This document shows positions 3,116 through 56,873 of a DNA stretch of 64,000 nucleotides, piece by piece. Position 1 is the stretch's first letter. Each line of letters opens with the position of its first letter. The notes beneath the pieces were generated by a model. The model searched no databases. It saw only the letters and a program-made list of their open reading frames with translations, and had not been told where the DNA came from. Made by a program: the position numbers and the translations under genes. Origin of the DNA: an uncultured Endomicrobiia bacterium (GTDB lineage Bacteria > Elusimicrobiota > Endomicrobiia > DTEH01); NCBI GenBank assembly GCA_937928765.1, contig CALFVX010000001.1, positions 16,246 through 80,245 of the forward strand, read 5' to 3'.

Positions 3116-3139
3116 TTTTTTAATAAAAAGGAGTTTTAT

Positions 3140-16998: not shown

Positions 16999-17016
16999 AT
17001 ATAGAGGAGTAATATT

Positions 17017-21100: not shown

Positions 21101-21440
21101 TTCAAAAGAATTTTTAGAAATAAAAAACTTTTCTTTGGCACTACAAGAACAAAATTCTGCAATAAATCTATTGTTAAAATTAAGGAATAAGTTTAATGAT
21201 AAAAAATCTATGATGCAACAAATATTAAATTCTATTGGTAAACCTATAGCGGAAAAATTGCAATATAAATCTTCTGCTGGTAAAATTGGTGTTATTGAAG
21301 GAAGAGTGTTGTTACCTTCTGTAAAAGATTATGAACCACCAAAAGAGTTAAGAGAAGAGATAATAAAGTCGTTAAGCGAAAAATATCCTAAAGAGTTAGA
21401 AAATATATTACAAAAATATTATCAAGAAATTTTAAGATGA
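18132..21440 (+). CDS. Large (1102 aa) membrane-anchored coiled-coil protein of unknown function
   Basis: N-terminal 3-4 TM helices followed by a long K/E/I/N-rich helical region. It is ATGA-coupled both upstream and downstream. Confidence 0.45.
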   Translation: MRIKDYFEKIVILRILFLVSRFVITAVNVIIGFFVLSMLIDKILPLPIIIFHIYWFIILGVIFIFFINLIVRVVELKVKPYYYIMESINKYLRLENKDAVINAFLLEQNLVYDKNLNFSSELASEFIKNVKEKLLEIKPKKIVEFEKIFKVLPLNFILISLAFILYIYPPYVIKEGVYKILFTRNPEILGIFIMPKNIKIPYKESCEIKVIIDKNYELYIPALFVKTKNFDKFVRVNFDSQENFLNRKIYKYKINSIEEKIFYKIKFRGVKTKTFVIDPILYPEISKIKIFVSPPEYTGIEPYEINSFNATKYFYNTNIKFTGTTNKKVENVNLLFSDGEKIILSLDKNKTNFYGEFKITKDTELWFEITDTENMNNFEKLRYKINILEDKYPEIKLISPQDEIVVEPNVKIPLVFSCRDDISLKKVELVYYINNDVKNKIKIKEYLQKTKEDLEEYIFDLSKLKVNFGDVISYYFIVYDNNPYKSQYNLSSVQKIEIFSYEKQHNNIQKQIEEFNKKSLDLLSKEIELKEFFLTKTTTTANFNDDLQKFIISHLKTKEDFDNLEKIISSIVENMSKDPYTSFDTYIEFKNIESLIKELKEEIFPKLLDELRDKNLSKAEESQQQIVDSLERITGLSNEIVKKQNMHNIAEIARDIKSFSEDIFEILKNSDKNISEEEKNKIKNLLKEIEDKLKKINDLIKNMPQDLPIEFVNQRDIQNLDLFSPTDLIQKIVSAIEQNNLSLATMLAKNLLSQLDYITKKISQPSYEIALSGTSYLDKELKELISNLDEIIFEEDEIYKNTKKIENYRITEVLKHQEDKKDIIKNHIEEIKNEINKVLNTDEFNQFVNKNIYKQNSLKAINNLNAVILETEKNIFLKTAQLIEDSKKIWMNNFDLINDLDIEIYRVLIEKTKIVKEKIDELHKIVNLEPEIKYKSEILKKNEELIYKQEFVINKTKNFREKLKSLGKKSFIISYKDILITNQSINSMNNSKEFLEIKNFSLALQEQNSAINLLLKLRNKFNDKKSMMQQILNSIGKPIAEKLQYKSSAGKIGVIEGRVLLPSVKDYEPPKELREEIIKSLSEKYPKELENILQKYYQEILR

Positions 21441-23023
21441 AAAAAAACATATATTTTGTGGCTTTAATTTTGTTAAACTCTATTTCTTTATTTTTAGCAG
21501 ATGTTAATCATCAAAATAGCAAGATAAATTTTATTTTAAATTATTTAGAAGCAGGCAATTTCAAACAAGCAGAAGAAATTATAAATACTGAGAGAGATTA
21601 TGATTTAAAAGGATATCTGTATAGTATATATCATTTATATAGCGGAGATAATGTTTTAGCCGAAGAATATGTTAAAAGAGTACAGAATAATTACAAAGAT
21701 GACTTCTTTTCTAATTATATTGTAAACATTAATAAAATTATAAACGATTATGAAGTTTATGAATCTCAACATTTTAAAGTTTTTCTTAAAGGTAAAGATA
21801 CTATACTAAAAGATTTTATTTTAGAAAAGTTAGAAAAAATTTATGAGATATATGGAAGGATATTTAATTATTATCCAGAAGATAAAGTTAGAGTAGAAGT
21901 TTATAATACAAAACAGGAATTCTATTTTGCTACAACTTTAAAAGAAGACTTAGTTAAAAATACAGGGGTAGTTGGTATTTGTAAGTTTAACAAAATTATG
22001 ATTATCTCACCAGAAAATTTGCCGTTAGGATACAGGTGGATTGACACATTAGCACATGAATACATACATTTTATTCTTAATAGAAAAACATCATATAAGT
22101 ATCCTTTATATCTACACGAAGCAACTGCAAGATATTTTGATACTATATATAGATCTTCTTTTGTGGTATGTTTTACAGCTGGTAATTTGAAATTATTAGT
22201 TGAAGCTAAAAAAAATAATAAACTTATAAATTTTGATGAGATGAAAGGATCTTTAATATATTTTGAGGATATAGATAAAATAGAATTAGCATTTGTAGAA
22301 CTTGCTAGTTTTGTAGAATTTTTAGTTAAAAATTTTGGTATTGAAAAATTTGTTAAATTTATAGAACAATATGATTCTCAGAATGAAAAAAAATTATATA
22401 AAGAAATTTTTGATAAAGATTATAAAGAGATCATATCTTTATGGATGCAAACAATAGATGAAAAAGAAGAATATATAAAACTATATCCTGGTGCTGTTTC
22501 AGATTTAAAAATTAAAACCGCAACAGATGAAAATAGTTTGATAGGCCTTGATTTAGAAAGTTATATTAGATTAGGAGATAAATTTTTAAGTTTGAATAAT
22601 TATAAATCTGCATTGTTTCAATATAATAAGGCAAAAGAGATTGAAGCCTATAATCCATTGGTTTTAAGTAGAATTGGGAAAATATATTTATTAACAAAAA
22701 AATATGATTTATGTGAGGAAGTATTAAAAGAATGTATATTGTCCAACCCAAATTTTGTTACTTCCTATGAGATTTTGTTAAAATGTTATTATGAAAAAGG
22801 TGATTATGAAAAAGTTTTAGAGATTTTTAATTCTGTTGTTGAGATTAATCCGTTTAATTATGAAATAAGAAAAATAGTTGCGGAAGTATATGCAAGTTTA
22901 GGTAAAATTAAAGAAGCATTGCAACAATATAAAATAGTAAAGATTTTACAACCAAATGATATAGAAATAGAAAATATTATTAATTCTTTAGAAGAATATT
23001 TAAAGATAAAATATAGAAGATGA
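21437..23023 (+). CDS. Putative secreted zinc metallopeptidase (HExxH) with C-terminal TPR repeats
   Basis: Signal peptide, HEYIH motif in the sequence DTLAHEYIHFIL, and a C-terminal TPR block. Confidence 0.45.
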   Translation: MKKNIYFVALILLNSISLFLADVNHQNSKINFILNYLEAGNFKQAEEIINTERDYDLKGYLYSIYHLYSGDNVLAEEYVKRVQNNYKDDFFSNYIVNINKIINDYEVYESQHFKVFLKGKDTILKDFILEKLEKIYEIYGRIFNYYPEDKVRVEVYNTKQEFYFATTLKEDLVKNTGVVGICKFNKIMIISPENLPLGYRWIDTLAHEYIHFILNRKTSYKYPLYLHEATARYFDTIYRSSFVVCFTAGNLKLLVEAKKNNKLINFDEMKGSLIYFEDIDKIELAFVELASFVEFLVKNFGIEKFVKFIEQYDSQNEKKLYKEIFDKDYKEIISLWMQTIDEKEEYIKLYPGAVSDLKIKTATDENSLIGLDLESYIRLGDKFLSLNNYKSALFQYNKAKEIEAYNPLVLSRIGKIYLLTKKYDLCEEVLKECILSNPNFVTSYEILLKCYYEKGDYEKVLEIFNSVVEINPFNYEIRKIVAEVYASLGKIKEALQQYKIVKILQPNDIEIENIINSLEEYLKIKYRR

Positions 23024-25764: not shown

Positions 25765-25793
25765 TTGACAAATTGCACTTTTTTGTATATTTA
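25765..25793 (+). promoter_or_regulatory. Sigma70-like promoter (TTGACA at about 25765-25770; -10 TATTTA/TATAT about 17 nt downstream) driving the riboswitch-led operon
   Basis: TAGTTGACAAATTGCACTTTTTTGTATATTTATATTAATTGG is nearly identical to the block at 55312-55350. Confidence 0.45.
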
Positions 25794-25841: not shown

Positions 25842-25934
25842 TTCCTTCACGCGATAAAGGCAAACCCTGAGTAATCAGGGGGCGCAAAGCTATAGGGTCC
25901 TTCAGATGAGGGGCAGCCAGCTGCCGAAGGAAGG
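25842..25934 (+). promoter_or_regulatory. Cyclic-di-GMP-I (GEMM) riboswitch in the 5' leader
   Basis: CACGCGAUAAAGGCAAACCCUGAGUAAUCAGGGGGCGCAAAGCUAUAGGGUCC...GGGGCAGCCAGCUGCC carries the GEMM-I hallmarks GGCAAACC and GGCGCAAAGCUAUAGGG with a GNRA-like tetraloop hairpin. Flanking P1 strands UCCUUC/GAAGGA overlap the SD, and the ATG is at 25938. Confidence 0.7.
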
Positions 25935-25937
25935 AAA

Positions 25938-26399
25938 ATGAAAGTAGAAGAAAATTTTTTTGCTTTCAAAAAAACATTTTACAAAAATTTTACATACTCT
26001 TTCCTTACTTTACTTTTTAGTATAATACTTATAAAAAATCTTTTGTTATCAAATCATAACATACAAAACTTACCTAATAATGATTTAAAATTTAGCAAAA
26101 GCTCTTATAGCACTATAAATTTTTATTCTGAAGAAGGTATTATAGTTAATTTTCCTAATCCGTTTAGTAATTTCACTTATATTTATGTTAGATTGCCTAA
26201 AAAAGATGATTGTATAATAAAAATATACGATTTGTTTGGTAATTTGATTAAAGAATTTAATCTATCTGGCGAAGATAAATATATGTTGGTTTGGGATGGA
26301 AGAAATTTTAATTCTGAAAAGGTATCAAAAGGCGGATATATTTGTGTCTTACAATATAGTGGTAAAAAAATTATAAGAAAAATAGGTTATTTAAGATGA
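25938..26399 (+). CDS. Small membrane-anchored protein consisting essentially of a T9SS C-terminal sorting (CTD) / FlgD-Ig-like beta-sandwich domain
   Basis: FPNPFSNFTYIYVRL...CIIKIYDLFGNLIKEFNL...WDGRNFNSEKVSKGGYICVLQYSGKKIIRKIGYL matches the Por_Secre_tail / FlgD_ig consensus. There is no cargo domain. Confidence 0.55.
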   Translation: MKVEENFFAFKKTFYKNFTYSFLTLLFSIILIKNLLLSNHNIQNLPNNDLKFSKSSYSTINFYSEEGIIVNFPNPFSNFTYIYVRLPKKDDCIIKIYDLFGNLIKEFNLSGEDKYMLVWDGRNFNSEKVSKGGYICVLQYSGKKIIRKIGYLR

Positions 26400-28003
26400 A
26401 GCTAAATAACAACAATAATATCTTTTTTGTTTTTGAATTTAAAATAAAAGTATGGGTTATTATTTTTTTGTTTTTATTTAATAATATTTTACAATCTTCT
26501 TACACAGGAGGCCAACCTGCAGAATTTTTACAATTTGGTGCTTCAGCAAAAGGTATGGCTATGAAAGCATTTTTTTCTATTTCAGATGATGCATCTGCAG
26601 TATATTATAATCCAGCAGGACTTGTACAGTGTGATAGAAAAGAAATTTTAGCCTTGCATACTGAACTTTTTCCTAATACTCAAACAATATATGATTTTAT
26701 AGGTTTTGTTTATCCTACGATAAAATATGGTATTTTTTCTTTAGGGATTACACAGTTGTTATCTACTGGATTTGAAAAAATCGAGATAGAATACGATTCT
26801 TCTTCAGAGGATATCATCAGAATAGAAAATAAAGGTACTTTTGATGATAGACAAATTGCTATTTTGTTAGGTTATGCTAAAGAAGTTGTTGAACATATAA
26901 ATTTAGGTGTCGGGTTTAAATATATTTCTAGAAAGTTAGATATTTATTCTGATACAATGATAGGTAGCGATATTAATGTATTAGTGAGTGGACTAAATTC
27001 AAAATTGCCAAAACTTAATGTTGCTTTTGGAATAAAAAATTTAATTTCTACTAAAAGTGGCACTGAAGATAGTTTGCCTATAATATTTAAATTAGGCAGT
27101 TCCTATAAGTTTATGAGAGACAGGTTAGTTTTAGGTTTTGATATTGAGAAAAATATAAATTCAGAGTTGAAATGGATGTTGGGAACAGAATATTGGTTAT
27201 TGGAGTTTTTTGCTTTGAGATTAGGATTTGAAGGTTTGAGTTATTTAAAAGAAACAACTGCAGGATTAGGGTTTAAATATAAAGATTATCGCGTAGATTA
27301 TTCCTTTGCATATCACGAATTGGGTTTTTCTCATAGAATTTCTGCAGATATAAAATGGGGTAAATCAGTAAAATTTGACCGAGAAGAAGAGATAAAAAGA
27401 TTAATTAACGAAACCATTGCTTTGTATACTGCAGGAAAGTTTATGGAAGCTGCAAAAAAAGCCGAAACAGCATATCAATTAGATCCTAACAAAAAAGATG
27501 TTAAAAAAATTCTTGATAATTTACTTTTGATAACAGCTTATATTCGTTCTGCAACAGAAGATACTGAAGAACATCAGGGTATAAGAAGGGCAACTTTATC
27601 TTTGATGGAAAACGATTTTGCTGGAACAGTTAATGCTTTAAGATATGCATATTATAAGAATCCAACTAATAAATCATTACATCAACTGTTAAATCGTATT
27701 GAACAAATAGCTGGAATGACTCTTACCGAAGCTTATAGGGAAGAAGTTGCTGGTTGGTCTATAATAGATAAAAAGATTTATGAAGCAAGAGAAGATGTTT
27801 TAAATGGTAGATACACTGACGCCATAAGAAAATGTCAGGAAATACTTAATTTAGAGCCAAAAAATACAACTGCACTTGAAATTATGGGTTCTGCCTTCTT
27901 TATGATGAATGAGATAGATAAAGCAAAAGCTGTCTGGAAAAAAGTCTTAGAATTAGATCCAACGAACAAGGTTATACAACAATTTTTACAAGAATTAGAA
28001 TAA
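26396..28003 (+). CDS. Outer-membrane beta-barrel protein (FadL/PorV-like N-terminal motif) with C-terminal TPR repeats
   Basis: Signal peptide, then FGASAKGMAMKAFFSISDDASAVYYNPAGL, which is the FadL/TodX/PorV-type hallmark. It has an alternating beta-strand pattern, and the last ~200 aa are TPR-like. Confidence 0.5.
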   Translation: MKLNNNNNIFFVFEFKIKVWVIIFLFLFNNILQSSYTGGQPAEFLQFGASAKGMAMKAFFSISDDASAVYYNPAGLVQCDRKEILALHTELFPNTQTIYDFIGFVYPTIKYGIFSLGITQLLSTGFEKIEIEYDSSSEDIIRIENKGTFDDRQIAILLGYAKEVVEHINLGVGFKYISRKLDIYSDTMIGSDINVLVSGLNSKLPKLNVAFGIKNLISTKSGTEDSLPIIFKLGSSYKFMRDRLVLGFDIEKNINSELKWMLGTEYWLLEFFALRLGFEGLSYLKETTAGLGFKYKDYRVDYSFAYHELGFSHRISADIKWGKSVKFDREEEIKRLINETIALYTAGKFMEAAKKAETAYQLDPNKKDVKKILDNLLLITAYIRSATEDTEEHQGIRRATLSLMENDFAGTVNALRYAYYKNPTNKSLHQLLNRIEQIAGMTLTEAYREEVAGWSIIDKKIYEAREDVLNGRYTDAIRKCQEILNLEPKNTTALEIMGSAFFMMNEIDKAKAVWKKVLELDPTNKVIQQFLQELE

Positions 28004-28014
28004 TTTTTAGGAGG

Positions 28015-29922
28015 ATGTTTATGAATATATTGAAAACAAATATAAATTTTTATATAAAAAATTATATGTTAAAACATATAAGCAAAGTTTTAATCCTAAT
28101 TATTCTTGCCACATTTCTACACCCACAACAAACAATTCAACAACTTTCTGCAGATCAACAGATAACTCCGGCAATGTTGCTTGAATATGAAACCAAGTTG
28201 GAACAGCAAAGGACAGAATATGTACAAAAAAATATTCTTGATAAAATTTTTGGCCCCAATAGATCTACAGTAATGATAGATATTACTTTAGGATTAAAGA
28301 CAACTACTACAAGACAACAGGCTTCTGCAAAAAAGCTTGATGCAAAAAGAAAATTAGGAGATACAGAATATTTACTACCCGGTATACCAAAACCTGGTTC
28401 TATTGCAGAGTCAGCTGTTCCAGCAGAAGCAAAAGGTGAGGCATCTGGTACTGAAATTATCGGAGTAAATACAGAGATAGTTATACAAAAGCAGAGTATT
28501 ACTGTAATATATGATGAAAAAATCAAAGATAATAAAGTAGAAATGGTTAGAGATGCTATTGCAGCAGCATTAGATATAAGAAAAAAAGAAACAATAGTAT
28601 TTAAGAAAGCAAAGTTTACTACGAATGTTTTGGAAAAATTTTTTGAAAATATTTTGTTACCAAAATATCTTATACCTTTGATAATAACTTTATTGTTATT
28701 AATGTTTTTGTTTGGTCCCATAGCAGATTTTTTAAGAAATTATATAAGAATGTTAAGAGAAAGATCACCCACAGAAATTTCTATAGACTCTAAACTTGCC
28801 AAAGAAGGAGAGTCGCCAACTGAAGGATTAACAGGAGCAGCTGGTGCAAGTGGAGTAGGAGGTGTATCTACAGGGTTGACAGAGGAAGAATTACAAGAAA
28901 AAGAAAAAATTAAAAAAGAAGAAAAATATATACCATTTAGTTATATAGATGACAGTAATATAAAGAGGTTAACATACTTAATAGCAAAAGAGAAACCAGA
29001 AGATATAGCTATTGTGCTTAGCTATTTAAAACCAGAGTATGTTAAACAAGTAATTGAAAGTTTTAAACCACATTTGCAAGCAGAGGTAGCAGTTGCTTTA
29101 GCTCAAGCAAGAGAAATACCGCAAGAAGATATTGTTCGTATGGATAACTATGTAAAAGAAAGAATTGATTTTTTGGTTGGAGGTATGCATCATCTTATAG
29201 AGTTATTACAGAAAGTAGATAAAACTACCCGAGATAATATATTAGAGTATCTTAAAAATGAAAAACCAGATATATATCAAAAAGTTCGTCCACAAATATT
29301 TTTGTTTGAAGATATTATTGATATTCCTGATATAACTTTACAAACTATTATTCGTGAATTAAAACCAGAAAATATTGCTCGTGCTTTAAGAAATGCTCCT
29401 AAAGAATTAGTTGATAAATTTTTTAAAAATATGTCAGAAGGAGCACAGGCACTTGTGAGAGAAGAAATTGACTATGGAAGGCCAATGACAAAAGAACAAA
29501 TTGAAGAAGAACAGAATAAAATTGTAGAATTAATTAAAAGAATGGAACAAGAAGGAAAAATTTATATTAAAGAAAGAGGAAAAACTTTTTTAATTGATGC
29601 AAGCGAAATTGTTTCAGAAACACAAAGAAATAAAAAAACAAATATAGAAGAATCTTTAGGATATGAGTATTATATTCAAGGTATAGATTTTTATCAACAA
29701 GGTGATTTTGAAAATGCAGTAACATATTTACAATATGCAACAGAATTAGATCCACAATTAAAAGAAGCATATCAATATCTTGGAAATATTTATTATGAAT
29801 CAGGGCAATATCAAGAAGCATTGAATTATTACAAAAAAGTTATAGAGATTAATCCAGAAGATAAAGAGTTTGCTTTATGGGTTGAAGAATTTGAAAAATC
29901 ATTATCAGTATCATCAATGTAA
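28015..29922 (+). CDS. Two-TM membrane protein with periplasmic segment, cytoplasmic FliG-like (middle plus C-terminal torque-helix) domain and C-terminal TPR repeats
   Basis: IAIVLSYLKPEYVKQVIESFKPHLQAEVAVALAQ compares with FliG IALILSYLDPDQAA..L..E.L..EV..RIA. FEDIIDIPDITLQTIIRELKPENIARALRNAPKELVDKFFKNMSEGAQALVREEIDYGRPM...EEEQNKIVELIKRMEQEGKIYI compares with FliG FEDIVNLDDRSIQRVLREVD...ALKGA..ELREKF..NMSKRAAEMLREDLE..GPV...VE.AQ..I...RRL...GEIVI. Confidence 0.6.
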   Translation: MFMNILKTNINFYIKNYMLKHISKVLILIILATFLHPQQTIQQLSADQQITPAMLLEYETKLEQQRTEYVQKNILDKIFGPNRSTVMIDITLGLKTTTTRQQASAKKLDAKRKLGDTEYLLPGIPKPGSIAESAVPAEAKGEASGTEIIGVNTEIVIQKQSITVIYDEKIKDNKVEMVRDAIAAALDIRKKETIVFKKAKFTTNVLEKFFENILLPKYLIPLIITLLLLMFLFGPIADFLRNYIRMLRERSPTEISIDSKLAKEGESPTEGLTGAAGASGVGGVSTGLTEEELQEKEKIKKEEKYIPFSYIDDSNIKRLTYLIAKEKPEDIAIVLSYLKPEYVKQVIESFKPHLQAEVAVALAQAREIPQEDIVRMDNYVKERIDFLVGGMHHLIELLQKVDKTTRDNILEYLKNEKPDIYQKVRPQIFLFEDIIDIPDITLQTIIRELKPENIARALRNAPKELVDKFFKNMSEGAQALVREEIDYGRPMTKEQIEEEQNKIVELIKRMEQEGKIYIKERGKTFLIDASEIVSETQRNKKTNIEESLGYEYYIQGIDFYQQGDFENAVTYLQYATELDPQLKEAYQYLGNIYYESGQYQEALNYYKKVIEINPEDKEFALWVEEFEKSLSVSSM

Positions 29923-29957
29923 GAAAGGATATTCTTCCACATCAGGAGGAATTAAAA

Positions 29958-32900
29958 ATGAGTATATTTGATAATATAAAAAATAAGTTAAATAAAAAAG
30001 AAAAAACAGAAACAGATGATAAAATAGAATTTTCAAATAAAAATGACGAGTATATACAAACAGATATGAATGATCCTATTATGTTAAAAGAAAACATACT
30101 TGCACAGATAAGGTATCTTGAACAAAAAATACAACAAGAAAGAGAAGAATTAATAAATCATCTTAAGTCTAAGGAAGAAGAAAAGGTTTCTTTAGAAATG
30201 AAGTTAAGTAATTTAGAATATAAAATTAATTCTAATAGGAATAATTTTGAAAAAGAAATAGAAAAATTAAGAGCAGATTTAGAAAGAGAGTTCCAACGTT
30301 TAAATTCAGAATATAATGAAGAAATTTCTTCTTGGGAAAAGATGTTAAATGTTAAGCAGAACGAAATAGAACAGTTGAGAAACAAAGCAGTATTTGAAGA
30401 AGCACAAAATAAAATGTTATTAGAACAAAAACAACAAGAAGTTAAACAAGAGATAGAAAGATTACAAAATAATCTAAAATTGTTAGAAAGACAGTTTGAG
30501 GAAGAAAAGAGCAAGTTTCATAGACGAATAGAAGAAAAAGATGAAGAAATTTTTAAATTAAAATCTTTAATAGAACTTAAAGAAAAACAACTAAAAGTTG
30601 AAGAAGAGAAATTTTTGTTATCAGCAAAAGATTTAAATGCCAAACGGCTACAGCAGATAAGTGAGATGCAGAAAAAATTTGAAGAAAAAATAGAAAATTA
30701 TAAGAAGTTATATAAGGCAAAAGATGAAGAATTTTTTACTGTAAAATATGTTTTGGAACAAAAACATTCAGAATGGGAACAACAACAAAAAGAAATGATT
30801 TCAAATTTAGAAAAATCAAAGAAAGATTATGAAAACAGGATAGGTCTTCTTAAAGAAGAAATAAAAAGTCATCAACAAGAGTTTGAAAAATTAATACAAG
30901 AGAAAGAAGAAGAAATAAAAAAATTAAAAGTAGAAATTATGTTAAAAGAAACACAATTTAATTCATTGATAGAACAAAAAAAGAAAATATTGTTAGAAGA
31001 AGAACAAAAGATAAAACAACAACTTTTTGATATTGAACAGAAATTTACAAAAGAATATGAAAACTATAATAAGTTGATACAAGACAAAGATCAAGAAATA
31101 ATGCATTTACAACTGATACATCAGCAGCAGTTGTCTAAGCTTAGAGAAGATTGGGATATAAAGATAAAAAAGTTATATGAAGAAAAAGAAGAATTAGAGA
31201 AAAAGATTCCTGAATTAGTTTCACAATTAGAAGAGATGAAATCAAAAGTAGCAAGTATTATGCAAGAGAAGAAGAGTTATATAGCAAAAATAAAGAAACA
31301 GAATAATGAGAAATTGCAAGAATTGAAAGAAAAATTAGAAAATACAATTAAAGAGATGTTAGAAAAAAATCAAAAATCAGAACAAGAATATAAGTTAAAA
31401 AAAGAAGAATTTGAAAACAAAAAAAATACATTAAAAATAGCACTGCAACAAAAAGAGTTAGAATTAAAAGAATTAAAAGAAAAATTAGAAAATGAAATTG
31501 AAAAAGAAAAAAACAGAGTGTTTTTGTTTGAACAAGAAATGAGACAAAAAAATTTACCTTTATATGAAAAAGTTAGTTTATTAAAAGAGGAAATTAAAGA
31601 TACGGAGAATAAAATACAGGATATTTTAAAAGCAAAAGATAAAGAAATACAGCATATTAACTTTAAGTATGAAATGTTAGAGAAGAATTTACAACAGAGA
31701 TATAGTAATGAATTAGAAAGTATTCAAAATAAAAAAATTTTATATGAAGAAAGGATTCTTCAGTTAAGAAATGAATTGAGTAAAATAGAACAAGAAAATA
31801 ATTTGAAGCTACAACAATATGAAAATGAAATAAAAGAAATACAAAACAATATAAATTTTTTAAATGAAAAAACAGAAGTAGAAAAAAGGAAAATAATAGA
31901 AGAAAACGAAAAAATAAAATATCAGTTGAATGAAGAAATTAAAAAATTAGAATGTAGATTAAATGAACTTATAAAAGAAAAAGAACAAATACTTAGTTCT
32001 AAACAACAAGAGGTTGATAGCTTAAATAATAAAATTTTAAATTTAGAAAAACAAAAGTATACTGAGATTGAAATGTTAAATAAAGATTGGCAACAGGAAG
32101 AAGAAAAGTTAAAGTTTAATATTCAACAATTAGAAGAAATTATAAAAGCAAAGATGGAAGAATATAAGACAAAAGTTATTCAAAAACAAAATGAATTGGA
32201 TTTGTTGAAAGAAAAATTTGCTAAAGAAGATTCAAATACGAGAAAAGATGTTGATAATTTAAAAATAAATTTAGAACAACAAAACTTACCTTTAGTTGAA
32301 AAACAGAAAGAAATTTTAAAAGCAATAGATGAATTACAAAAGGAAATGCAAGAAAAAGTTATTGAATATGATAAAAAAATTAATGATTTAAAAATTGAGT
32401 TAGATGATAAAATAAAACAATTTTCTGACATTGAACAGAAAAAGAAACAAGAAATAAAAATCTTAAGAGAAAAACTTAAAAGTTATTTGTTTACAAAAGA
32501 AGCACGAATTAAAGAATTGCAGACAGAATATGAGGAAAGGATTAAGCAGATAGAAAAAGAAAAGCAAGATTTTATTTTAGAACATAACAAAAAAATTCAA
32601 GAGTTAGAAATGACAAAAGATGGCATTGTTGAAAAATATAATATAGAAAGGCAGAAATTATTAGAAAATATTGATAATCTCACAATACAACTTAATAATT
32701 TTCAAGAAGAGATGCCAGAAGTTATTTCTGAAAAAGAAAAGGAAAAAGAAGAGTTGATTGTGCAGCTACAACAAATACAGAAAGAATATGCTGAAAAATT
32801 TGAAAATTTAAAGAACATGCAGATTACTTTACAAGAAAGACTAGAAAAAAGGATAAATAATTATCAAAAAATTATAAATTCTTTAAAGGAAGAACAAGAA

Positions 32901-34766
32901 AGAAAGATATATCAAAAACAGCAGGAGTTTGATAAAGTTAAAGAAGAATTAAAAGAAAAAGAAAACAGATTGTTAGAAGAAATAAGAAATTTGAATGAAA
33001 AAAATACTACAGAAATTGATAGATTAAAACAACAGAAAGAAAATCTTATCAAAAAAATAGAAGAGTTAGAGGCCACAAGTAAACAAATAATTAATAAGTT
33101 AGACTCAGAAATATTACAGATTAAGACAGAAATTATATCTAAAAAAGAATCTTTTGAACAAGAATGGACATTAAAACAAACAGATTTTGAAGATTTAAAA
33201 AATTCTTTAAACATTGAAATAGAATCTTTAAAAGTTAAGTTAAAAGCTGAAGAAGATAATTATAAAATTAAACTTATTGAAAGAACACAAGCACTTGAGA
33301 ATCTTAAAAAAGAATATGAGAATAGATATCAGCAATTGTTAAATGAATTTAACAATAAAAAAAATGACTTTAATGTTAAAATAGAAAAATTAAATATTAA
33401 AATTGCAAATTTGGAAGAAGAATTGAGGTCAAAGCAAGATTATTATTCTGCTTTGCAAAAAGCTAAAAAAGAAGAGATAGATAATATAAAATCTGAACTT
33501 TCTAATTTGGAAATAAATACTAAAATTGAAGAAGAGAAAAGGCAAAAAGAACTATCTTTACAACAGCAGAAATTAAAAGAAGAATTGGAAATATTAAAAC
33601 AACAATTAGAAATACAACGTGATAAATATATTGAAGAATTAAATAATAAAATAGCTGAAGAACAAAAAATTACAAACGATTTTAGACAAAAAGAAAAAGA
33701 GCTATTAGAAAAAATGACTCAAATAGAGGAAGAATATAATACTAAGAAACAACAATATCAGGTAGAATTGTCAAAATTGCAGAAACAATTAAAATTATTA
33801 TCTGAACAAAATGAAAAATTAATATCTGAGTTGGATAAAGAAATAGAACAAAATAATACAAAGATTGCTTTAAAACAAATTGAATTTAATACAATGAGAC
33901 AAAAATTTGAATTTGAATTTAAGAAACTTGTTTTACAGTATCAACAACAGAAAGAAAAAATTATTAGAGATTTTAATAAAGAAAATGAAGAGTTGATAGA
34001 ATCAATAAAAACAAAAGAAAATGAAATTGATACTATAAAGATGAGATATAATATAAGACAAAAAAGTATAGATGAAGAAATTAAAAGAAGAAAAAATTTT
34101 ATAGTAAAAGAATTATCTGAGTTAGAAAATGAGATTAAAAATATGGAAAATGTCTATGATGTAAAAAGTAAAGATTATGAAATACAAATTAACAGGAAAA
34201 AAGATCTTATTTCAAAGTTGAAATCTGAATTAGATAAATTAATTTTTTGCTGGGATGAAGAAAAAGAAAAAATTCTTAAAGAGAAACAAGAAAATAAAAA
34301 ACAATTAGATGAAGAGATAAATATTTTAAAGCAGAAATTAGATGAATACAAAACATATATTAACGAACTCATAATGAAAATAGAATCAAAATTTAAATTA
34401 GAACAAGAATTACTTGATTTTAAAGATTTTGAATTTATCAAAGAAAAACATATAACTTATAATACATTAGATAAAATTTATAGCTTGGTTACAAAAGATA
34501 AAACTAAATCAGAAATTAAGTTCAATAAAAATTTATTAGATGAAGCATTGATGTATTTTGATAACAAACAGTATGATTTATCTATAAAAAAATTTTTAAT
34601 TTTATTAGAACAAGATAAAAACAACGAGTTGTTAAATCAATATTTAGCATTATGTTATTATAACATTAAAGATTTTAAAAAAGCTAAAGAATATGGATTA
34701 AAAGTTTTAGAAATAAATCCTAACAATGAAATTATTAAATCCTGGCTTAAAGAAATAATTGAATAA
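29958..34766 (+). CDS. Giant (1602 aa) coiled-coil protein with C-terminal TPR module
   Basis: Continuous E/K/L/Q/N heptad-rich sequence with no globular ATPase head, and a TPR-like terminus (QYLALCYYNIKDFKKAKEYGLKVLEINPNN). Strong AGGAGG RBS. Confidence 0.6.
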   Translation: MSIFDNIKNKLNKKEKTETDDKIEFSNKNDEYIQTDMNDPIMLKENILAQIRYLEQKIQQEREELINHLKSKEEEKVSLEMKLSNLEYKINSNRNNFEKEIEKLRADLEREFQRLNSEYNEEISSWEKMLNVKQNEIEQLRNKAVFEEAQNKMLLEQKQQEVKQEIERLQNNLKLLERQFEEEKSKFHRRIEEKDEEIFKLKSLIELKEKQLKVEEEKFLLSAKDLNAKRLQQISEMQKKFEEKIENYKKLYKAKDEEFFTVKYVLEQKHSEWEQQQKEMISNLEKSKKDYENRIGLLKEEIKSHQQEFEKLIQEKEEEIKKLKVEIMLKETQFNSLIEQKKKILLEEEQKIKQQLFDIEQKFTKEYENYNKLIQDKDQEIMHLQLIHQQQLSKLREDWDIKIKKLYEEKEELEKKIPELVSQLEEMKSKVASIMQEKKSYIAKIKKQNNEKLQELKEKLENTIKEMLEKNQKSEQEYKLKKEEFENKKNTLKIALQQKELELKELKEKLENEIEKEKNRVFLFEQEMRQKNLPLYEKVSLLKEEIKDTENKIQDILKAKDKEIQHINFKYEMLEKNLQQRYSNELESIQNKKILYEERILQLRNELSKIEQENNLKLQQYENEIKEIQNNINFLNEKTEVEKRKIIEENEKIKYQLNEEIKKLECRLNELIKEKEQILSSKQQEVDSLNNKILNLEKQKYTEIEMLNKDWQQEEEKLKFNIQQLEEIIKAKMEEYKTKVIQKQNELDLLKEKFAKEDSNTRKDVDNLKINLEQQNLPLVEKQKEILKAIDELQKEMQEKVIEYDKKINDLKIELDDKIKQFSDIEQKKKQEIKILREKLKSYLFTKEARIKELQTEYEERIKQIEKEKQDFILEHNKKIQELEMTKDGIVEKYNIERQKLLENIDNLTIQLNNFQEEMPEVISEKEKEKEELIVQLQQIQKEYAEKFENLKNMQITLQERLEKRINNYQKIINSLKEEQERKIYQKQQEFDKVKEELKEKENRLLEEIRNLNEKNTTEIDRLKQQKENLIKKIEELEATSKQIINKLDSEILQIKTEIISKKESFEQEWTLKQTDFEDLKNSLNIEIESLKVKLKAEEDNYKIKLIERTQALENLKKEYENRYQQLLNEFNNKKNDFNVKIEKLNIKIANLEEELRSKQDYYSALQKAKKEEIDNIKSELSNLEINTKIEEEKRQKELSLQQQKLKEELEILKQQLEIQRDKYIEELNNKIAEEQKITNDFRQKEKELLEKMTQIEEEYNTKKQQYQVELSKLQKQLKLLSEQNEKLISELDKEIEQNNTKIALKQIEFNTMRQKFEFEFKKLVLQYQQQKEKIIRDFNKENEELIESIKTKENEIDTIKMRYNIRQKSIDEEIKRRKNFIVKELSELENEIKNMENVYDVKSKDYEIQINRKKDLISKLKSELDKLIFCWDEEKEKILKEKQENKKQLDEEINILKQKLDEYKTYINELIMKIESKFKLEQELLDFKDFEFIKEKHITYNTLDKIYSLVTKDKTKSEIKFNKNLLDEALMYFDNKQYDLSIKKFLILLEQDKNNELLNQYLALCYYNIKDFKKAKEYGLKVLEINPNNEIIKSWLKEIIE

Positions 34767-34785
34767 TTAATAGGAGGACAAAATT

Positions 34786-37700
34786 ATGGCAGAAGAAAAA
34801 AACAAACAATTTGTTCCAAAACCACCATTGATTAATAAACCTGCTCAAGGGTTTATACAAAAACCGCCTTTGCCAAAAATTAATTTACCACAGTCACCAA
34901 AGATACAAGATAAATTACAACAAGGTATGGCTAATTCTGGAATATCATCTGCACCACAATTTTCAACTTCTATAGAACAACGTCTATGGGAAGCAGAACA
35001 AGCTAAAAGACAAATGGAAATTCAACTGCAGGAATTACAAAAAATGTTGTTGGAAGAAAGAGAAAAACTTATGATGCAGACTATAAAAACTAAAGAAGAA
35101 GAAAGTTTAGCTGCTAAAGTTGAAGAAAGTATTAAAGATATTCAAGAGAGGTTAAGAAGGGAGAAAAGAGAACAAGAACTTCAAGAAGAGAAAGAAAAGT
35201 TGTTGAAACAAATTAAAGAATTAGAGGAACGTCTAGTTAAAGAAAGAGAAACTTGGATTGAAACACTTAAAACACAACTTTCTCAAAGAGATTTACAAGA
35301 ACAACAAATAGAGCAACAGTATTTGTCTAAAATAAGAGATTTGGAATCAAGATGGCAAGAAGAAAAGTCAAAATTTCAATTTATTTTGAGGTCTAAAGAT
35401 GAAGAAATAAGTAAAATAAGAAATGAATATAAAATTTTAGAAGAAAAACTCAAAGCAGAAGTTGAAAAACAAATTTCCGAATACAAATTTGAAAAGAAAA
35501 ATTTTGAAACAGAAATTAAAAATTTAAAAACCATAATTGAAGATAAAGAAAAAGAAATAATTTCTTTAAAATCACAAATATCTACAATTATTTCAGAATC
35601 AAATATAAAAAAAGATAAAACAGATTTTGAATTAAAGAAAAGAGAAGAACATATTGCAAAATTACAAAGTATTTTAGATAATATGAAATCTGAAATTAAT
35701 GTTTTGAAAAAACAAAAAGAACAAAATGAAAAAGATTTTTTTATATTAAAAGCACAGATGGGTATAATACAAGCAAAACATAAAACAGAGTTAGAAAAAC
35801 TTTCTGAAAAAAAAGATTTAGAATTAAAATCAGTTCAACAATTAGTTGAGCAGTTAAAAAAGAATTTAGAAAACAAAAATGAGATAATTAAAAATTTAGA
35901 AGTGGAAATAGAAAACTATAAAAAAGAAAAAGAAAAATATGTCTCTGAAAAAGAGAATGAAATTAATATTTATAATGAAAAGCTAAATTCTATAGCCAGT
36001 TTATTGAAGAACAAGGAAGATTATATAAATAAACTTAACCAAGATTTTTCTAAATTAGTCCAAAATAAGGAAAATTTAGAAGAAAAATCTAAAATTTTGG
36101 AAGAAGAAAATAATAAACTTAAAGTTGAATTAGAGAAAAATCTACAGCAGAGAGATGCTGAATCTAAATTGTATCAACAACAAATTTTAGAACTACAGAA
36201 ACAAATTAATGATAAAATCAATTATGTTATGAAATTGGAATTAGAATTAGACAAAAATAGATCTTATTTATTACAGAAGGAACAAGAAAATAATAATCTT
36301 AGGTTAGAATTAAATAGCTTATTGCAAGAGATAGAGTTAAATAAACAAGTAGTTGATGAAATAAAAAAAGAGATATTACTTAAAGATGATCTATTAAGGA
36401 ATTTAAATTTTGAGTTAGAGAAGACAAAATCTAATTTAGAAAAGAAAATTTTAATATTAGAACAGAAAGAAAAAGAGTTAAAACAAATTTTAGAAAAAAA
36501 TGAATACTTAGAAAAAAGTTTAAAACATAAAGAAGAATTGGAAGGAAATTTAAAAGATTTAATAGATAAGATGAAAACAGAAATATCTAAGTTAGAAAAT
36601 GAAATAAAAGTTTCAAAAATAGAAAAGGAAAAGTTAGAAATAGAAGTTAAGAGATTTTTAGAACAATATGAACTAGAAAAAAATAATAATCAATTGCTTG
36701 TTTCTCAACTTCAGGAGAGTAAAGTTAATATAAACAAATTGGAGTTGCAATTAGAAAAATATAAATCAGAATTAGATTTGGCTAATCAAGTGTTGTCAAA
36801 CAGAGAGAAAGAAATAGATAACTTTAAAGAGATTAACATAAGTCTTAAGCAAGAATTGGTAATTAAAGATGAAAAAATTAATAAGATAGAGAATGAAAAT
36901 AAATTACTTATATCAGAATTAGAAAGAACAAAAAATGATTTTGAATTATATTTAAATGAATACAATAAAATTAAATTAGAGTATGAGAAATTAAAAAATA
37001 ATTTTAATGAAGAATTAAACAAAGTAATTTCTGAAAAGTTATTCCCTTATGAAGAACATATTAAAAATATAGAATTTGAAAATCAGAAGTTATTGCAAGA
37101 GCTACAAACTAAGAATACAAAAATAGAAGAATATATAGACTCTATTAAAAATTTAAGTCAGAAGCTAGATAATTTATATAAAGATTATGAAAAACTACAA
37201 CAAGAAAACCAGCAAAAAGAGCAAAATATTTTTTCTCTTAGAGATTTAATTTCAGATTTACAACAAGAAAAAGATAAATTTTTAAAAGAAATAAAAGATT
37301 ATGAATTAGAATTAATAAATAAAAATAATAAAGTTTACGAGTTATCAGAATTAGTTCAGCAGAAAGAAACTGAGATTAAGAAATTTTCTGAAGATATAGA
37401 TGTTTACACTAAGGAAATTAATAATTTAATGTCTACCATAGAAAGCCTCAATATTAAAATAAAAGAACTAGAAGAGAAAAGTAAAGAAGAGAAAGAAAGC
37501 TTGATTTCTGAAAAAAGAATTTTAGAACAAAAGGTAAAAGATCTAATTGAAACAAACGAAGAAAAAAAAGAAACAATTTCAAGAATAAATTCAGAATTAG
37601 ATAATATTAGGAAGAAATATGAACAAGAAAAATTGCAAATTGAAAAACAATATAATGAAAAATTGGAAATTTTGCAAAAAAATCATGAGACTACAATAGA

Positions 37701-37983
37701 TAAAATAGATATTGCTTGGAAAAGGATACATTCAAAATTATTAAGTGAATATCGTTTGTTGGAAAAAAAATTGAACCAAAAAGATGAAGAAATATCAAAA
37801 TTAAAATCAAGATTAGAAACAATAAGTTTAGCTAATGATATTAAGAACAATAAAATTAAAGTGAAAAATTCAAAAATTATAAGTGAAGAAGATGGTGTTA
37901 TTGATATTAACACAAGATATGATAAGAAAAATTTGTTTTTAAGAATTTGGTTGTGGTTAAATAAGCCAATATTGAAAATATAA
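34786..37983 (+). CDS. Giant (1065 aa) coiled-coil protein with Pro-rich N-terminus and hydrophobic C-terminal tail
   Basis: N-terminus PKPPLINKPAQGFIQKPPLPKINLPQSPK, a ~950-aa heptad coiled coil, and a C-terminal NLFLRIWLWLNKPILKI. GGAGG RBS located 19 bp after the upstream stop. Confidence 0.6.
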   Translation: MAEEKNKQFVPKPPLINKPAQGFIQKPPLPKINLPQSPKIQDKLQQGMANSGISSAPQFSTSIEQRLWEAEQAKRQMEIQLQELQKMLLEEREKLMMQTIKTKEEESLAAKVEESIKDIQERLRREKREQELQEEKEKLLKQIKELEERLVKERETWIETLKTQLSQRDLQEQQIEQQYLSKIRDLESRWQEEKSKFQFILRSKDEEISKIRNEYKILEEKLKAEVEKQISEYKFEKKNFETEIKNLKTIIEDKEKEIISLKSQISTIISESNIKKDKTDFELKKREEHIAKLQSILDNMKSEINVLKKQKEQNEKDFFILKAQMGIIQAKHKTELEKLSEKKDLELKSVQQLVEQLKKNLENKNEIIKNLEVEIENYKKEKEKYVSEKENEINIYNEKLNSIASLLKNKEDYINKLNQDFSKLVQNKENLEEKSKILEEENNKLKVELEKNLQQRDAESKLYQQQILELQKQINDKINYVMKLELELDKNRSYLLQKEQENNNLRLELNSLLQEIELNKQVVDEIKKEILLKDDLLRNLNFELEKTKSNLEKKILILEQKEKELKQILEKNEYLEKSLKHKEELEGNLKDLIDKMKTEISKLENEIKVSKIEKEKLEIEVKRFLEQYELEKNNNQLLVSQLQESKVNINKLELQLEKYKSELDLANQVLSNREKEIDNFKEINISLKQELVIKDEKINKIENENKLLISELERTKNDFELYLNEYNKIKLEYEKLKNNFNEELNKVISEKLFPYEEHIKNIEFENQKLLQELQTKNTKIEEYIDSIKNLSQKLDNLYKDYEKLQQENQQKEQNIFSLRDLISDLQQEKDKFLKEIKDYELELINKNNKVYELSELVQQKETEIKKFSEDIDVYTKEINNLMSTIESLNIKIKELEEKSKEEKESLISEKRILEQKVKDLIETNEEKKETISRINSELDNIRKKYEQEKLQIEKQYNEKLEILQKNHETTIDKIDIAWKRIHSKLLSEYRLLEKKLNQKDEEISKLKSRLETISLANDIKNNKIKVKNSKIISEEDGVIDINTRYDKKNLFLRIWLWLNKPILKI

Positions 37984-55898: not shown

Positions 55899-56270
55899 TT
55901 TAAACCTTTATACCCCCTGCTAGGATAATTTTGGCAGGAAAAAATTCATATTCATAACAGGTCCCGTACTACATATATTTTTGCGGGACTAGTTATGGGT
56001 ATAAAGGGAAAAAATCAACATCGAAATAAAAAATAAGACAGAGAAAGTTCAAATAAGTTAAAAAGAAAAAAAGCACTACTATTTAAAATGCCATATATAA
56101 AGTTTTTTTGTAAAGAGTAAAAAAAATAATTGGATTAAAAAATAAGTGAAATGAAAGTTAACCAGCAAAATACAAAATTTAACTATAAGGTAAAAAAGCT
56201 TTTTTATTTTAAATTTTGGTTTAAAAAATTAATATTTTGCTCTATTTCCATTTTCTTAAAGGAATAAAAA

Positions 56271-56869: not shown

Positions 56870-56873
56870 TAAA

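Follow-up and report, generated by a model that had tools for sequence, protein, structure and literature searches.

We analyzed a 64-kb stretch of DNA from an uncultured Endomicrobiia bacterium (assembly GCA_937928765.1, contig CALFVX010000001.1, positions 16,246 to 80,245; hereafter the window, numbered from its first nucleotide), which encodes two giant helical proteins next to each other on the + strand. An earlier reading of the DNA letters alone (the original prediction) had described these open reading frames (ORFs), and we recovered them at the same lengths: CC1, of 1602 amino acids (aa), at 29958-34766, and CC2, of 1065 aa, at 34786-37983. We propose, with moderate confidence, that CC1 and CC2 are paralogous cytoplasmic helical rods that act as dedicated structural subunits of an uncharacterised envelope-spanning machine of the Elusimicrobiota. 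CC1 comprises an N-terminal head, a repeat array and a C-terminal module resembling tetratricopeptide repeats (TPRs), and CC2 is the putative core coiled-coil partner of a protein in which parts of the flagellar FliF and FliG are fused to TPRs. All results come from sequence, predicted structure and gene context in metagenome-assembled genomes (MAGs), from which the genes, their conservation, their domain identities, their linkage and the repeat geometry of CC1 can be read directly.

CC1 and CC2 are the last two genes of an operon in which a promoter and a riboswitch are followed by genes for a protein with a type IX secretion system (T9SS) C-terminal domain (CTD), a PorV-family β-barrel with TPRs, the FliF-FliG-TPR fusion, CC1 and CC2. 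The five genes (25938-37983) are separated by gaps of -4, 11, 35 and 19 nt, and strong AGGAGG Shine-Dalgarno sites are found on genes of the operon. The gene directly before CC1, which the original prediction had recognised as FliG-like, encodes a 635-aa protein (28015-29922, + strand) that matches FliG_C at 101 bits and FliG_M at 42 bits, and aligns with the middle and C-terminal domains of Thermotoga maritima FliG at an E value of 2e-38 (PDB 3ajc/1lkv); the best FliG_N match, 21.4 bits, lies under the Pfam cut-off of 25. The protein has transmembrane (TM) segments at residues 17-35 (signal or TM) and 210-228, and its 170-aa periplasmic domain was modeled by AlphaFold2 (predicted local distance difference test, pLDDT, 81.5) as an α-β-β-α-β fold with two long strands. 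Foldseek matched the protein to FliG (8e-11), to FliF (9a67, 2e-5) and to the Salmonella MS-ring chain 7bk0_B (4e-3), and some of its homologs carry precomputed YscJ_FliF_C matches. The periplasmic fold and the FliF matches together identify this gene as a FliF-FliG fusion, with an RBM3-like FliF domain, a TM segment, the FliG middle and C-terminal domains and a TPR tail. Within the FliF-like domain, a LPGIPKP sequence (residues 121-127; 28375-28395) sits in a low-confidence region between the two long periplasmic strands, and its L121, P122, P125 and P127 are invariant or at least 90% conserved in 62 homologs. This site may be a contact, for example with the periplasmic TPR of the PorV-like protein.

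The original prediction had asked whether relatives keep the pair together with the FliG-like gene, and the rods do stay with the fusion. The gene that follows the FliG fusion (or CC1) belongs to the CC2 family in 16/16 loci of a first batch, at E values of 1e-34 to 1e-170, and also in loci recovered from metagenomes. A metagenome scan seeded with the FliG-fusion alignment added 80 loci, and we sorted a total of ~100 loci into arrangements A, A', B and C plus a single locus, L066. Some of these loci represent the same genome from different collections (L013/L046, L002/L035), so locus counts overstate the number of independent observations. Type A (~32 loci including the window) has the FliG fusion, a CC1 of 24-29 repeats and CC2, with MotAB not in the flank; type A' (L089, and L063 in part) has FliG, a short CC1, CC2 and MotAB; type B (~19 loci) has FliG, CC2 and MotAB; and L066 has FliG, MotA, MotB and CC1. 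Wherever a locus of type A, A' or B has sufficient contig, CC2 comes after the FliG fusion, either directly or with CC1 in between, and this order holds across the phylum at FliG identities down to ~32%. From this linkage, CC2 appears to be the phylum-wide core partner of the FliG fusion.

To search for relatives of the rods themselves, we initially used word-indexed searches, which returned only 3 relatives for CC2 residues 1-330 and 2 for full-length CC1 because low-complexity words swamp the candidate list. These searches were replaced by an exhaustive profile search and by retrieval through the context of the FliG fusion. The exhaustive search with a profile of the CC2 N-terminal domain found 156 representative proteins among 1.84 billion, which indicates a specific family rather than a generic coiled coil, and in most full-length proteins among the matches listed the best match lay at the N-terminus. 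The CC2 family is a small one, its 156 representatives being comparable to the 226 clusters of the FliG-TPR family. Over its first ~315 residues, CC2 is homologous (31-34% identity, E values of 1e-27 to 1e-40) to the product encoded directly after the FliG-like gene in distant Elusimicrobiota, whose genomes have 39-65% GC and lack CC1.

The ends of CC2 are conserved in ways that its rod is not. The Pro-rich start noted in the original prediction is present as a segment predicted to be disordered (residues 10-38; 34813-34899, + strand): nine of the 12 prolines of CC2 lie inside residues 11-38, and five of these (P13, P14, P19, P30, P35) are at least 90% conserved in 52 CC2 family members. It is followed by a conserved N-terminal helix with an 'ERxTW' motif (residues 69-330; 34990-35775, + strand), in which E91, E153, R154 and W157 are invariant in the same 52 proteins. 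AlphaFold2 predicted no secondary structure for residues 1-68, with pLDDT below 50 for residues 33-69, and a single unbroken helix for residues 69-329 at pLDDT 90-98; a fold search with a single long helix would be meaningless. The rod varies in length from ~480 to 1340 aa across complete type-A and type-B loci. At its C-terminus CC2 ends in LFLRIWLWLNKPILKI (37933-37980, + strand), so the amphipathic or hydrophobic tail of the original prediction corresponds to a conserved family motif; related motifs end proteins across the family in the clade-specific forms W..LN.PV.EI, R(L/M)KWA.KGK and LL.WL(R/K)P. This motif may either bind the membrane as an amphipathic helix or serve as a peptide ligand for TPRs.

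CC1 and CC2 also have the composition of long helical proteins that had been described for them: E, K, Q, L and N together with I make up 74% of CC1 and 72% of CC2, and helical periodicity is far above chance. CC1 contains 6 Pro and 3 Gly in total. Neither a signal peptide nor a TM segment is predicted in CC1 or CC2, and we therefore take both to be cytoplasmic. Their lack of ATPase heads held up in every search. Regular-expression searches of CC1 and CC2 found no Walker A, Walker B or ABC signature motif, and Pfam and NCBIfam returned no ATPase or hinge domain for either; an NCBIfam scan of CC1 had no match, Pfam gave nothing significant for CC2, and for CC1 it gave only a sub-threshold C-terminal TPR. 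These results bear on whether the proteins could be relatives of SMC, MukB or RecN with cryptic heads. The sole match to speak for this, between CC2 and NCBIfam SMC_prok_B, reached 49.6 bits against a cut-off of 567 and covered the coiled-coil arms alone. A central globular hinge of the SMC kind was not found in CC1, where the hydrophobic phase runs unbroken from residue ~30 to 1490, nor was a non-helical domain, the interruptions being single conserved Pro residues. There is almost no Gly from which to build a P-loop, and PDB sequence searches with CC1 and CC2 returned nothing useful.

The evidence also speaks against the proposal that these are non-functional, recently expanded low-complexity ORFs, which the original prediction had named as a possible refutation. 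The CC1 orthologs of four Endomicrobiia MAGs (1602, 1616, 1603 and 1602 aa) can be aligned over their whole length at 42-51% identity, and those of two further lineages are just 21-23% identical. The six-way alignment (21-52% identity) contains zero indels between window residues 33 and 1511, a span of 1,478 residues, and the orthologs keep frame, length, repeat phase and the single prolines. Tandem Repeats Finder detected no long or recent repeats in the DNA, and the 61-aa repeat of CC1 described below can be detected solely at the level of protein properties. By their sequence conservation, CC1 and CC2 are evidently real, expressed-type genes under strong constraint. We regard cryptic SMC-like proteins and junk ORFs alike as effectively excluded, with a vanishingly small probability remaining for either. 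The GC content across the first 58 kb of the window is 22-29%, the nearest genomic relatives are MAGs of Endomicrobiia and Elusimicrobiota, and an identical copy of the FliG-like neighbour protein is present on a Logan contig. One 100%-identical protein is labelled 'Candidatus Omnitrophica' at NCBI, which looks like a binning label.

The original prediction had described both proteins as almost entirely heptad repeats. This is roughly true of CC2, whose hydrophobic period of 3.53-3.55 without long-range coherence corresponds to approximate heptads with stutters, but it does not hold for CC1. A simple 28-residue heptad-register scan flagged 8-9% of residues, a failure explained by CC1 not being heptad-based, and was dropped in favor of Fourier analysis. 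The hydrophobic pattern of CC1 has a sharp peak at 3.588 residues, with a power of 2.94 compared to 0.26 at 3.50 and 0.36 at the hendecad value of 3.667; this period and the near-zero power at 3.50 rule out a heptad coiled coil. Across residues 50-1450 the peak falls at 3.5882, or 61/17, with a raw power of 29.1 against a maximum of 2.0 in shuffled sequences and a normalised spectral power of 141 where ~1 is expected. The phase stays at 0.06-0.21 of a turn from residue 28 to 1484 (~1,460 residues), demonstrating zero phase slips across the array. Secondary peaks in hydrophobicity and charge are all harmonics of 61 (15.25, 12.2, 10.2, 8.7, 7.6, 6.1, 5.55, 2.77, 2.65, 2.26, 2.10 and 2.03), as is true of all six orthologs.

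When written in rows of 61 aa, the CC1 array (residues 62-1525; 30141-34532, + strand) forms 24 rows of diverged repeats. In a profile of the repeat (6 orthologs x 24 repeats), column 4 is aromatic, column 8 is L/I, column 11 Lys (62%), column 12 E/D, column 14 Glu (67%), column 15 I/L, column 18 Leu and column 19 Lys; 11 columns form a strongly hydrophobic core, and several predicted core columns are held by conserved K or E. Repeats inside one CC1 are 17.6% identical to each other versus 11% in a shifted control, and from this low value we conclude that the array is ancient, with each repeat conserved position by position between species. A literature search for a 61-residue (17-turn) coiled-coil repeat did not find one. 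Compared with an undistorted helix of 3.63 residues per turn (PMC9858780), a period of 3.588 would produce about one third of the canonical left-handed supercoil, and we estimate a pitch of ~46 nm, or ~5 repeats per turn, a value that depends closely on the helix parameter chosen. Taking 0.1485 nm for each residue, one repeat would measure ~9 nm and the array ~215 nm; the predicted rod of ~210 nm lies in the range of about 150-230 nm first suggested.

The sole prolines in the CC1 rod serve as landmarks. Pro534 (31557-31559), in repeat column 46, and Pro778 (32289-32291) are invariant in 6 aligned orthologs, and Pro920 (32715-32717) is present in 5/6; all three are predicted hinges or kinks on the + strand. 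The first two are exactly 244 aa (4 x 61) apart and occupy the same repeat column, while the step of 142 aa from Pro778 to Pro920 recurs across the CC1 family. Pro534 is kept in most of 29 complete CC1 proteins. After deduplication across all loci, 28 unique complete CC1 proteins remained, with a spectral peak at 3.586-3.591 in 28/28, and they fall into three length classes. The short class (584-600 aa) has ~9 repeats and neither hinge nor TPR; the middle class (1514-1633 aa, 23 proteins) has ~24-25 repeats; and the long class (1854-1858 aa, plus P0273 at 1860) has ~28-29 repeats. In the long class the Pro spacing is 244, 244 and 142, so that one whole 244-aa module has been added between hinges. 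These classes and whole-module steps lead us to conclude that CC1 length evolves in repeat units, and such unit-wise change in the sequences is what would be expected of a ruler, or of a rod held in register with a periodic partner.

Beyond the array, the TPR ending named in the original prediction is found in the C-terminal module of CC1 (34533-34763, + strand). TPR_2 matches residues 1561-1590 at 21.7 bits (gathering threshold 27; E value 2e-4), CC1 orthologs carry TPR_16/TPR_19 matches, and a conserved C-terminal sequence, ...CY.N.G....A......LE..P.N...K.W..., is kept in orthologs of 24 and of 28 repeats. At the opposite end, the N-terminus of CC1 matches the 'ERETW...RWQEEK' region of CC2 by hhalign (probability 96.2%, E value 2e-9), and the CC1 repeat motif resembles the CC2 motif FQFILRSKDEEISKIR by eye. 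Together these two likenesses make it most likely that CC1 is a CC2 paralog that arose by duplication, followed by expansion of one segment. That the two proteins are paralogs, that CC1 is built on a 61-residue unit and that the FliG-like protein has a FliF-like half, as well as the riboswitch and the PorV/T9SS-like genes, are all observations that go beyond the original prediction.

A function of CC1 and CC2 as a generic, intermediate-filament-like cytoskeleton of the Ccrp, crescentin or Scy-FilP kind, which would shape or stiffen the cell and merely be co-transcribed with motor genes, has several things to recommend it. The composition and length of the rods resemble those of bacterial coiled-coil-rich proteins, non-heptad rods have a precedent in the hendecads of Scy and FilP (PMC9858780), and a bactofilin gene occurs elsewhere in the window. 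Nevertheless, the strict phylum-wide gene order with the FliG fusion, the shared control by a cyclic di-GMP (c-di-GMP) riboswitch, and a CC2 family about as restricted as that of FliG-TPR argue against it, as do the conserved terminal peptides, which point to specific partners. The family assignments also fail at the level of domains. CC1 and CC2 contain no Response_reg receiver domain, the hallmark of AglZ and FrzS, and no DivIVA domain in Pfam or NCBIfam, and the crescentin profile Rod_CreS matched CC2 alone, at 15.8 bits against a cut-off of 100. The AglZ/FrzS- and Ccrp-type families suggested in the original prediction, like the Scy/FilP type, do not account for these proteins, and we judge a generic cytoskeleton to be rather improbable. 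Of the scaffold role that had been suggested for motility or shape, the part concerning headless rods for a motility-type apparatus fits the FliG/MotAB context, but the cell-shape part gained no specific support. The bactofilin gene comes after an M23 peptidase gene (2165-3544 for the two, + strand), a known cytoskeletal pairing that is positionally unrelated to the operon.

A sigma-70-type promoter consensus match (TTGACA, a 17 nt spacer and TATTTA; 25765-25793, + strand) lies upstream of the operon. When the upstream sequences of four Endomicrobiia relatives are aligned, TTGACA and the -10 region prove conserved, so this element probably serves as the operon promoter. It is followed by a c-di-GMP-I-type riboswitch aptamer of the GGC variant (25850-25929, + strand; Rfam RF03167, 66.3 bits with gathering threshold 59, E value 1.9e-13), whose 3' end abuts the Shine-Dalgarno site and leaves 8 nt to the start codon of the first gene. 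As the 3' strand of the aptamer overlaps the ribosome-binding site, this arrangement suggests translational control. Rfam c-di-GMP-I aptamers are found directly upstream of the PorV-TPR gene in L006-L010 and in tandem in L013, L014, L016 and L018-L020. A covariance model built from the aptamers of relatives and run on 1.19 Mb found 53 aptamers, all on the operon strand and upstream of the operon. Among the loci with enough upstream sequence, an automatic count placed at least one aptamer upstream in 33/47, or 35/47 after correction of two mis-called gene starts (L015, L079), and 13 loci have two in tandem. The type-C loci, in which FliG-TPR and MotAB occur without PorV-TPR and CC2, have none. 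The clade nearest the window (L002-L005, L025-L030, L035) has lost the aptamer, and none was found in L002, L004 or L005 even at relaxed thresholds; the operon promoter is conserved despite this loss. In one relative, a chemotaxis set lies directly upstream of the operon (L016, 1-7224), comprising CheA, a PAS response regulator, a 651-aa PilM/MreB/FtsA-like protein, two CheC, CheD, CheY and another response regulator; this single case fits a motility function.

The first two genes of the operon encode envelope proteins. The first product is a small signal-anchored T9SS type-A CTD or FlgD_ig-like protein of 153 aa (25938-26399, + strand), for which both profile matches are marginal (Por_Secre_tail 27.3 bits, cut-off 27; TIGR04183 25 bits, cut-off 23); in L013, L014, L016, L018 and L020 this place in the operon is taken by small FlgD_ig proteins. 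The second is a 535-aa protein (26396-28003, + strand) with a PorV/PorQ-family β-barrel at residues ~42-319 (NCBIfam NF033709 PorV_fam, 109.9 bits, cut-off 90, E value 1.9e-31), a predicted signal peptide and C-terminal TPR matches, and in types A and B its gene directly precedes that of the FliG fusion. Giant genes adjoin the operon in several relatives. In L008 (23-7924) a 2,633-aa protein with a FlgD_ig/CTD-like end is encoded immediately upstream of the riboswitch and operon, L014 and L019 have neighbour proteins of ~1,200 aa with fn3 and CHU_C domains, and proteins of 7,235 aa in L018 (1-6772) and 17,339 aa in L013 (1-5490), whose genes likewise lie immediately upstream, had no domain match recorded. 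We consider the giant proteins of L008, L018 and L013 candidate cargo or adhesins of the PorV-like module.

CC1 and CC2 might themselves be fibrils that are exported or displayed on the surface, with either the FliF/FliG-like apparatus or the PorV-like module handling them as substrates. The envelope proteins of the operon are compatible with this, and substrates of the flagellar type III secretion system lack signal peptides as the rods do. However, CC1 and CC2 have neither a signal peptide, a CTD sorting domain nor a TM segment, the export-gate genes for FlhA/B and FliPQR are in none of the ~100 neighbourhoods, and the TPR end of CC1 and the Pro-rich end of CC2 are typical of cytoplasmic adaptor contacts. 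We therefore hold exported fibrils to be very improbable and effectively excluded.

A stator for the FliG fusion is encoded in many of the relatives. MotA-MotB follows CC2 in ~15 of ~19 type-B loci, the contig ending first in the others, and in distant relatives CC2 is followed by (FlbD-)MotA-MotB and a small lipoprotein; altogether MotAB lies in the homologous cluster of ~30 related loci, including beside CC1 or CC2. The linked MotA matches flagellar MotA of Clostridium sporogenes (E value 4e-54) and PomA (4e-45) over its full length. We take the rotor-stator charge pairs of E. coli to be MotA R90 with FliG D288-D289 and MotA E98 with FliG R281, and numbered the torque helix (fusion residues 474-486; 29434-29472) from tool alignments to T. 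maritima FliG and C. sporogenes MotA together with this established knowledge. The equivalents of FliG D288 and D289 are E in 62/62 and 48/62 homologs, respectively, and the linked MotAs keep a basic (K/R) residue at the R90 position. The equivalent of FliG R281 is never basic (G in 47, N in 13 and S in 2 of the 62), and that of MotA E98 is Gln in 4/4 linked MotAs (L006, L008, L010, L015). This reciprocal loss of R281 and E98 in the sequences is what a co-evolved interface would show.

Alternatively, the rods could be the mechanical output, with CC2 and/or CC1 mounted on the FliG part and rotated or pulled by MotAB. They would then transmit torque or displacement along the cytoplasmic face, either as proposed for the long ZorA tail of Zorya or as a rack and pinion acting on the repeats of 61 residues (9 nm). 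Driven rods are consistent with the exactly periodic surface of CC1 and its quantised length, with the charged residues K11, E/D12, E14 and K19 conserved in every repeat, and with the retained acidic pair of the FliG torque helix. They are also consistent with the position of MotAB directly before CC1 in L066 and with a ZorA3 tail profile that gives CC1 a weak match (19.4 bits, E value 8e-5). However, that match is at the level expected of any long coiled coil, the rods have no covalent link to MotA or FliG, and type-B systems have CC2 alone, with a rod that is non-periodic and variable in length. On this balance we consider driven rods unlikely, for the ZorA-like and the rack-and-pinion variants alike. 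A Zorya defence system was also considered and rejected: PADLOC found no system, with just a 19-bit match of CC1 to the ZorA tail, the linked MotA had no ZorA match, and no Zorya effector genes were found here.

In the machine that we propose instead, the inner-membrane core would be the FliF-FliG-TPR fusion, replacing the MS-ring and the torque-receiving part of the C-ring, and it would be driven by a flagellar-type FlbD-MotA-MotB stator. The outer-membrane end would be the PorV-family barrel with its TPR, which by analogy with the T9SS shuttle could hold CTD proteins, both the small CTD protein and the giant CTD-bearing surface proteins. CC2 would take the place that FliM and FliN have in the flagellum: its N-terminal helix, Pro-rich peptide and/or W..LN.P peptide may dock on the cytoplasmic FliG-TPR or on the membrane, and its rod would link or brace motor units. 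CC1, as a segmented rod of ~210 nm with ~24 repeats, fixed Pro hinges and a terminal TPR, might serve as a ruler, or as a rail with regular docking sites, by which the spacing, number or reach of units is set. Through the leader riboswitch, c-di-GMP would gate expression of the entire operon, and the output could be surface motility, adhesin movement or secretion.

Several observations weigh against this proposal. There is no MotAB in the 64-kb window nor adjoining the operon in most type-A relatives, so that the stator link for this genome is extrapolated from relatives; in the lineage of the window the stator would have to be encoded elsewhere, and attempts to lengthen the contig from genes at its edges reached only short contigs. 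The ~15 type-C loci (L059-L062, L064, L068, L077, L078, L088, L091, L092, L098, L099, L102, L104), which have FliG-TPR and MotAB alone, imply that the rotor-stator pair can exist without rods; several of the type-C tblastn matches (L091, L092 and L098 among them) cover just the half with FliG_MC and TPR, from residue ~300. P0220, a member of the CC2 family, is encoded by itself with no FliG gene nearby. SprA/Sov, PorK/N and PorL/M (GldL/M) were not seen in the window or the neighbourhoods, and with no other T9SS core gene seen, the idea that the PorV-like barrel holds cargo is drawn by analogy. The window aptamer is of the GGC variant, with c-di-GMP as its putative ligand, and CC1 may be either a straight 210-nm rod or one folded back at its hinges. 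The physical contacts between the proteins, their oligomeric state and what is moved or secreted are ones that we infer. Finally, the TPR modules of PorV-TPR, FliG-TPR and CC1 are mutually no closer than they are to unrelated TPRs of the same genome; a shared origin of the three was rejected, as they showed no excess similarity over the other TPRs of the window.

Among known systems, the cluster has parallels in the flagellar motor. It shares with that motor true FliG middle and C-terminal domains, a FliF RBM3-like periplasmic fold in a partner gene, linked flagellar-type MotA, MotB with plug and OmpA domains, and FlbD, as well as the conserved acidic FliG pair facing MotA R90; CC2 sits where a FliG-binding cytoplasmic partner would be expected. 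It differs in that FliF and FliG are fused here and carry a TPR tail, and the R281/E98 pair has been lost on both sides. No FliM/FliN (SpoA) domain was found by Pfam or NCBIfam in CC1, CC2 or any operon gene, nor in the neighbourhoods, and export gate, rod, hook and filament genes were absent from the window and the annotated neighbourhoods. CC1 and CC2 have no flagellar homolog.

With the T9SS and Bacteroidota gliding machinery the cluster has in common a PorV-family barrel, a first gene that encodes a type-A CTD protein, giant surface proteins beside the operon whose ends are CTD-like (CHU_C, FlgD_ig), and an ion-driven 5:2-type motor in the cluster. In contrast to the T9SS, the motor here is MotAB with FliG and not GldLM/PorLM, the barrel carries a TPR, no PorU was seen in the window or neighbourhoods, and the T9SS itself has no cytoplasmic coiled-coil rods. 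The T9SS is regarded as Bacteroidota-specific in the literature that we found.

Other machines and rods offer looser parallels. The Agl-Glt machinery of Myxococcus couples a proton-driven inner-membrane motor to envelope proteins rich in TPRs, barrels of the outer membrane, an adhesin and a long coiled coil in the cytoplasm, and from this established knowledge it would be the same in concept as the machine that we propose; its motor is TolQR-like (AglRQS) and lacks FliG, and there is no sequence relation. The ZorA tail of Zorya is likewise a long coiled coil tied to a MotAB-like 5:2 motor, with the weak profile match described above, but it is part of the MotA-like chain, whereas the linked MotA here is of the ordinary 260-aa flagellar type. 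Tropomyosin and nebulin are known to carry a strict long-range repeat on a helical rod whose length comes in repeat units, as in CC1, which differs in having no known periodic partner and no homology to them. Scy and FilP of Streptomyces resemble CC1 and CC2 in being non-heptad rods of more than 1000 aa with weak supercoiling (PMC9858780), but they have hendecads (~3.67), an Ala-rich core and a DivIVA-like head, in place of which CC1 has a 61/17 period, a core of L/I, aromatic residues and Lys, Pro hinges, a TPR tail and another gene context. We place the system among ion-motor-coupled envelope machines with coiled-coil scaffolds.

A bolder version of the proposal, to which we give a low but real probability, is that the cluster encodes a new motility or adhesion device, in which a flagellum-derived rotor-stator has been rewired to a PorV-like anchor with giant CTD adhesins, CC1 is a true ruler or rack, and c-di-GMP is the on/off switch. 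Each of the ~24 (or 9, or 28) repeats of CC1 would then dock one motor unit or step, grouped in 244-aa modules between Pro hinges, and the repeats would thereby determine how large a ring is, or the pitch along a linear track. If 24 repeats of 9 nm formed a circumference of ~217 nm, the ring would be ~70 nm in diameter. Such a device would explain the 'enigmatic' motAB and fliG of non-flagellated Elusimicrobiota.

Flagellar structural genes are missing from most Elusimicrobiota, which nonetheless retain motAB, flbD and fliG, genes whose role has been called unclear or enigmatic (Uzun et al., bioRxiv 10.1101/2022.07.08.499144). Our analysis names the full gene set that travels with these genes and offers a concrete explanation for this published puzzle. 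In the literature we found no description of the operon, the FliF-FliG fusion, its riboswitch or the coiled-coil pair, and a search for a non-flagellar FliG/MotAB system, or for a T9SS or PorV in Elusimicrobiota, returned just the remark by Uzun et al. If the proposal is correct, the flagellar rotor-stator interface has gained a second use beyond the flagellum, in which it is joined to T9SS-like parts of the outer membrane, and this would bear on the evolution of, and module exchange among, flagella, gliding machines and other 5:2-motor systems. CC1 is an unusually clean natural quantised coiled coil that makes the idea of a bacterial protein ruler directly testable, and it should be of use to the theory and design of coiled coils as well. 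The single or tandem c-di-GMP riboswitches provide an experimental handle with which to switch the system.

We also noted several features outside the operon. In the window, a giant ORF of at least 1,947 aa (58158-64000, + strand) begins 20 kb downstream of the operon and runs off the window end; on L021 it reaches at least 2,256 aa. It has an N-terminal signal anchor and just a faint Big_13 match in Pfam, and its GC content is 38-39% compared to ~25% in the rest of the window. This ORF possibly encodes a surface protein like those beside the operon in relatives. It is preceded by a HEAT-repeat protein (57490-58161), and just upstream of that are genes of toxin-antitoxin type (window ~56000-57490, + strand; L021 269-1332) for a Phd/YefM antitoxin, a ParE toxin, an MNT nucleotidyltransferase and a HEPN protein. 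Contig L017 (5537-7963 and 11023-15251), which carries the stand-alone CC2-family protein P0220 (808 aa), also encodes a fn3+CHU_C protein followed by a PorP/SprF+TPR protein, another T9SS-like pair of the phylum, and has a Cas12b (C2c1) fragment at its start. Upstream of the operon, the window block at 7104-23023 (+ strand) begins with a Bat/aerotolerance-like set (DUF58, BatA-VWA, DUF4159, GATase1-like) and continues with two TMEM260-like glycosyltransferase-TPR proteins, an MGDG-synthase-like protein, a 1,102-aa DUF4175-like protein and a Peptidase_MA_2-TPR protein; synteny with the close relatives L002-L005 is seen for the final portion of this block.

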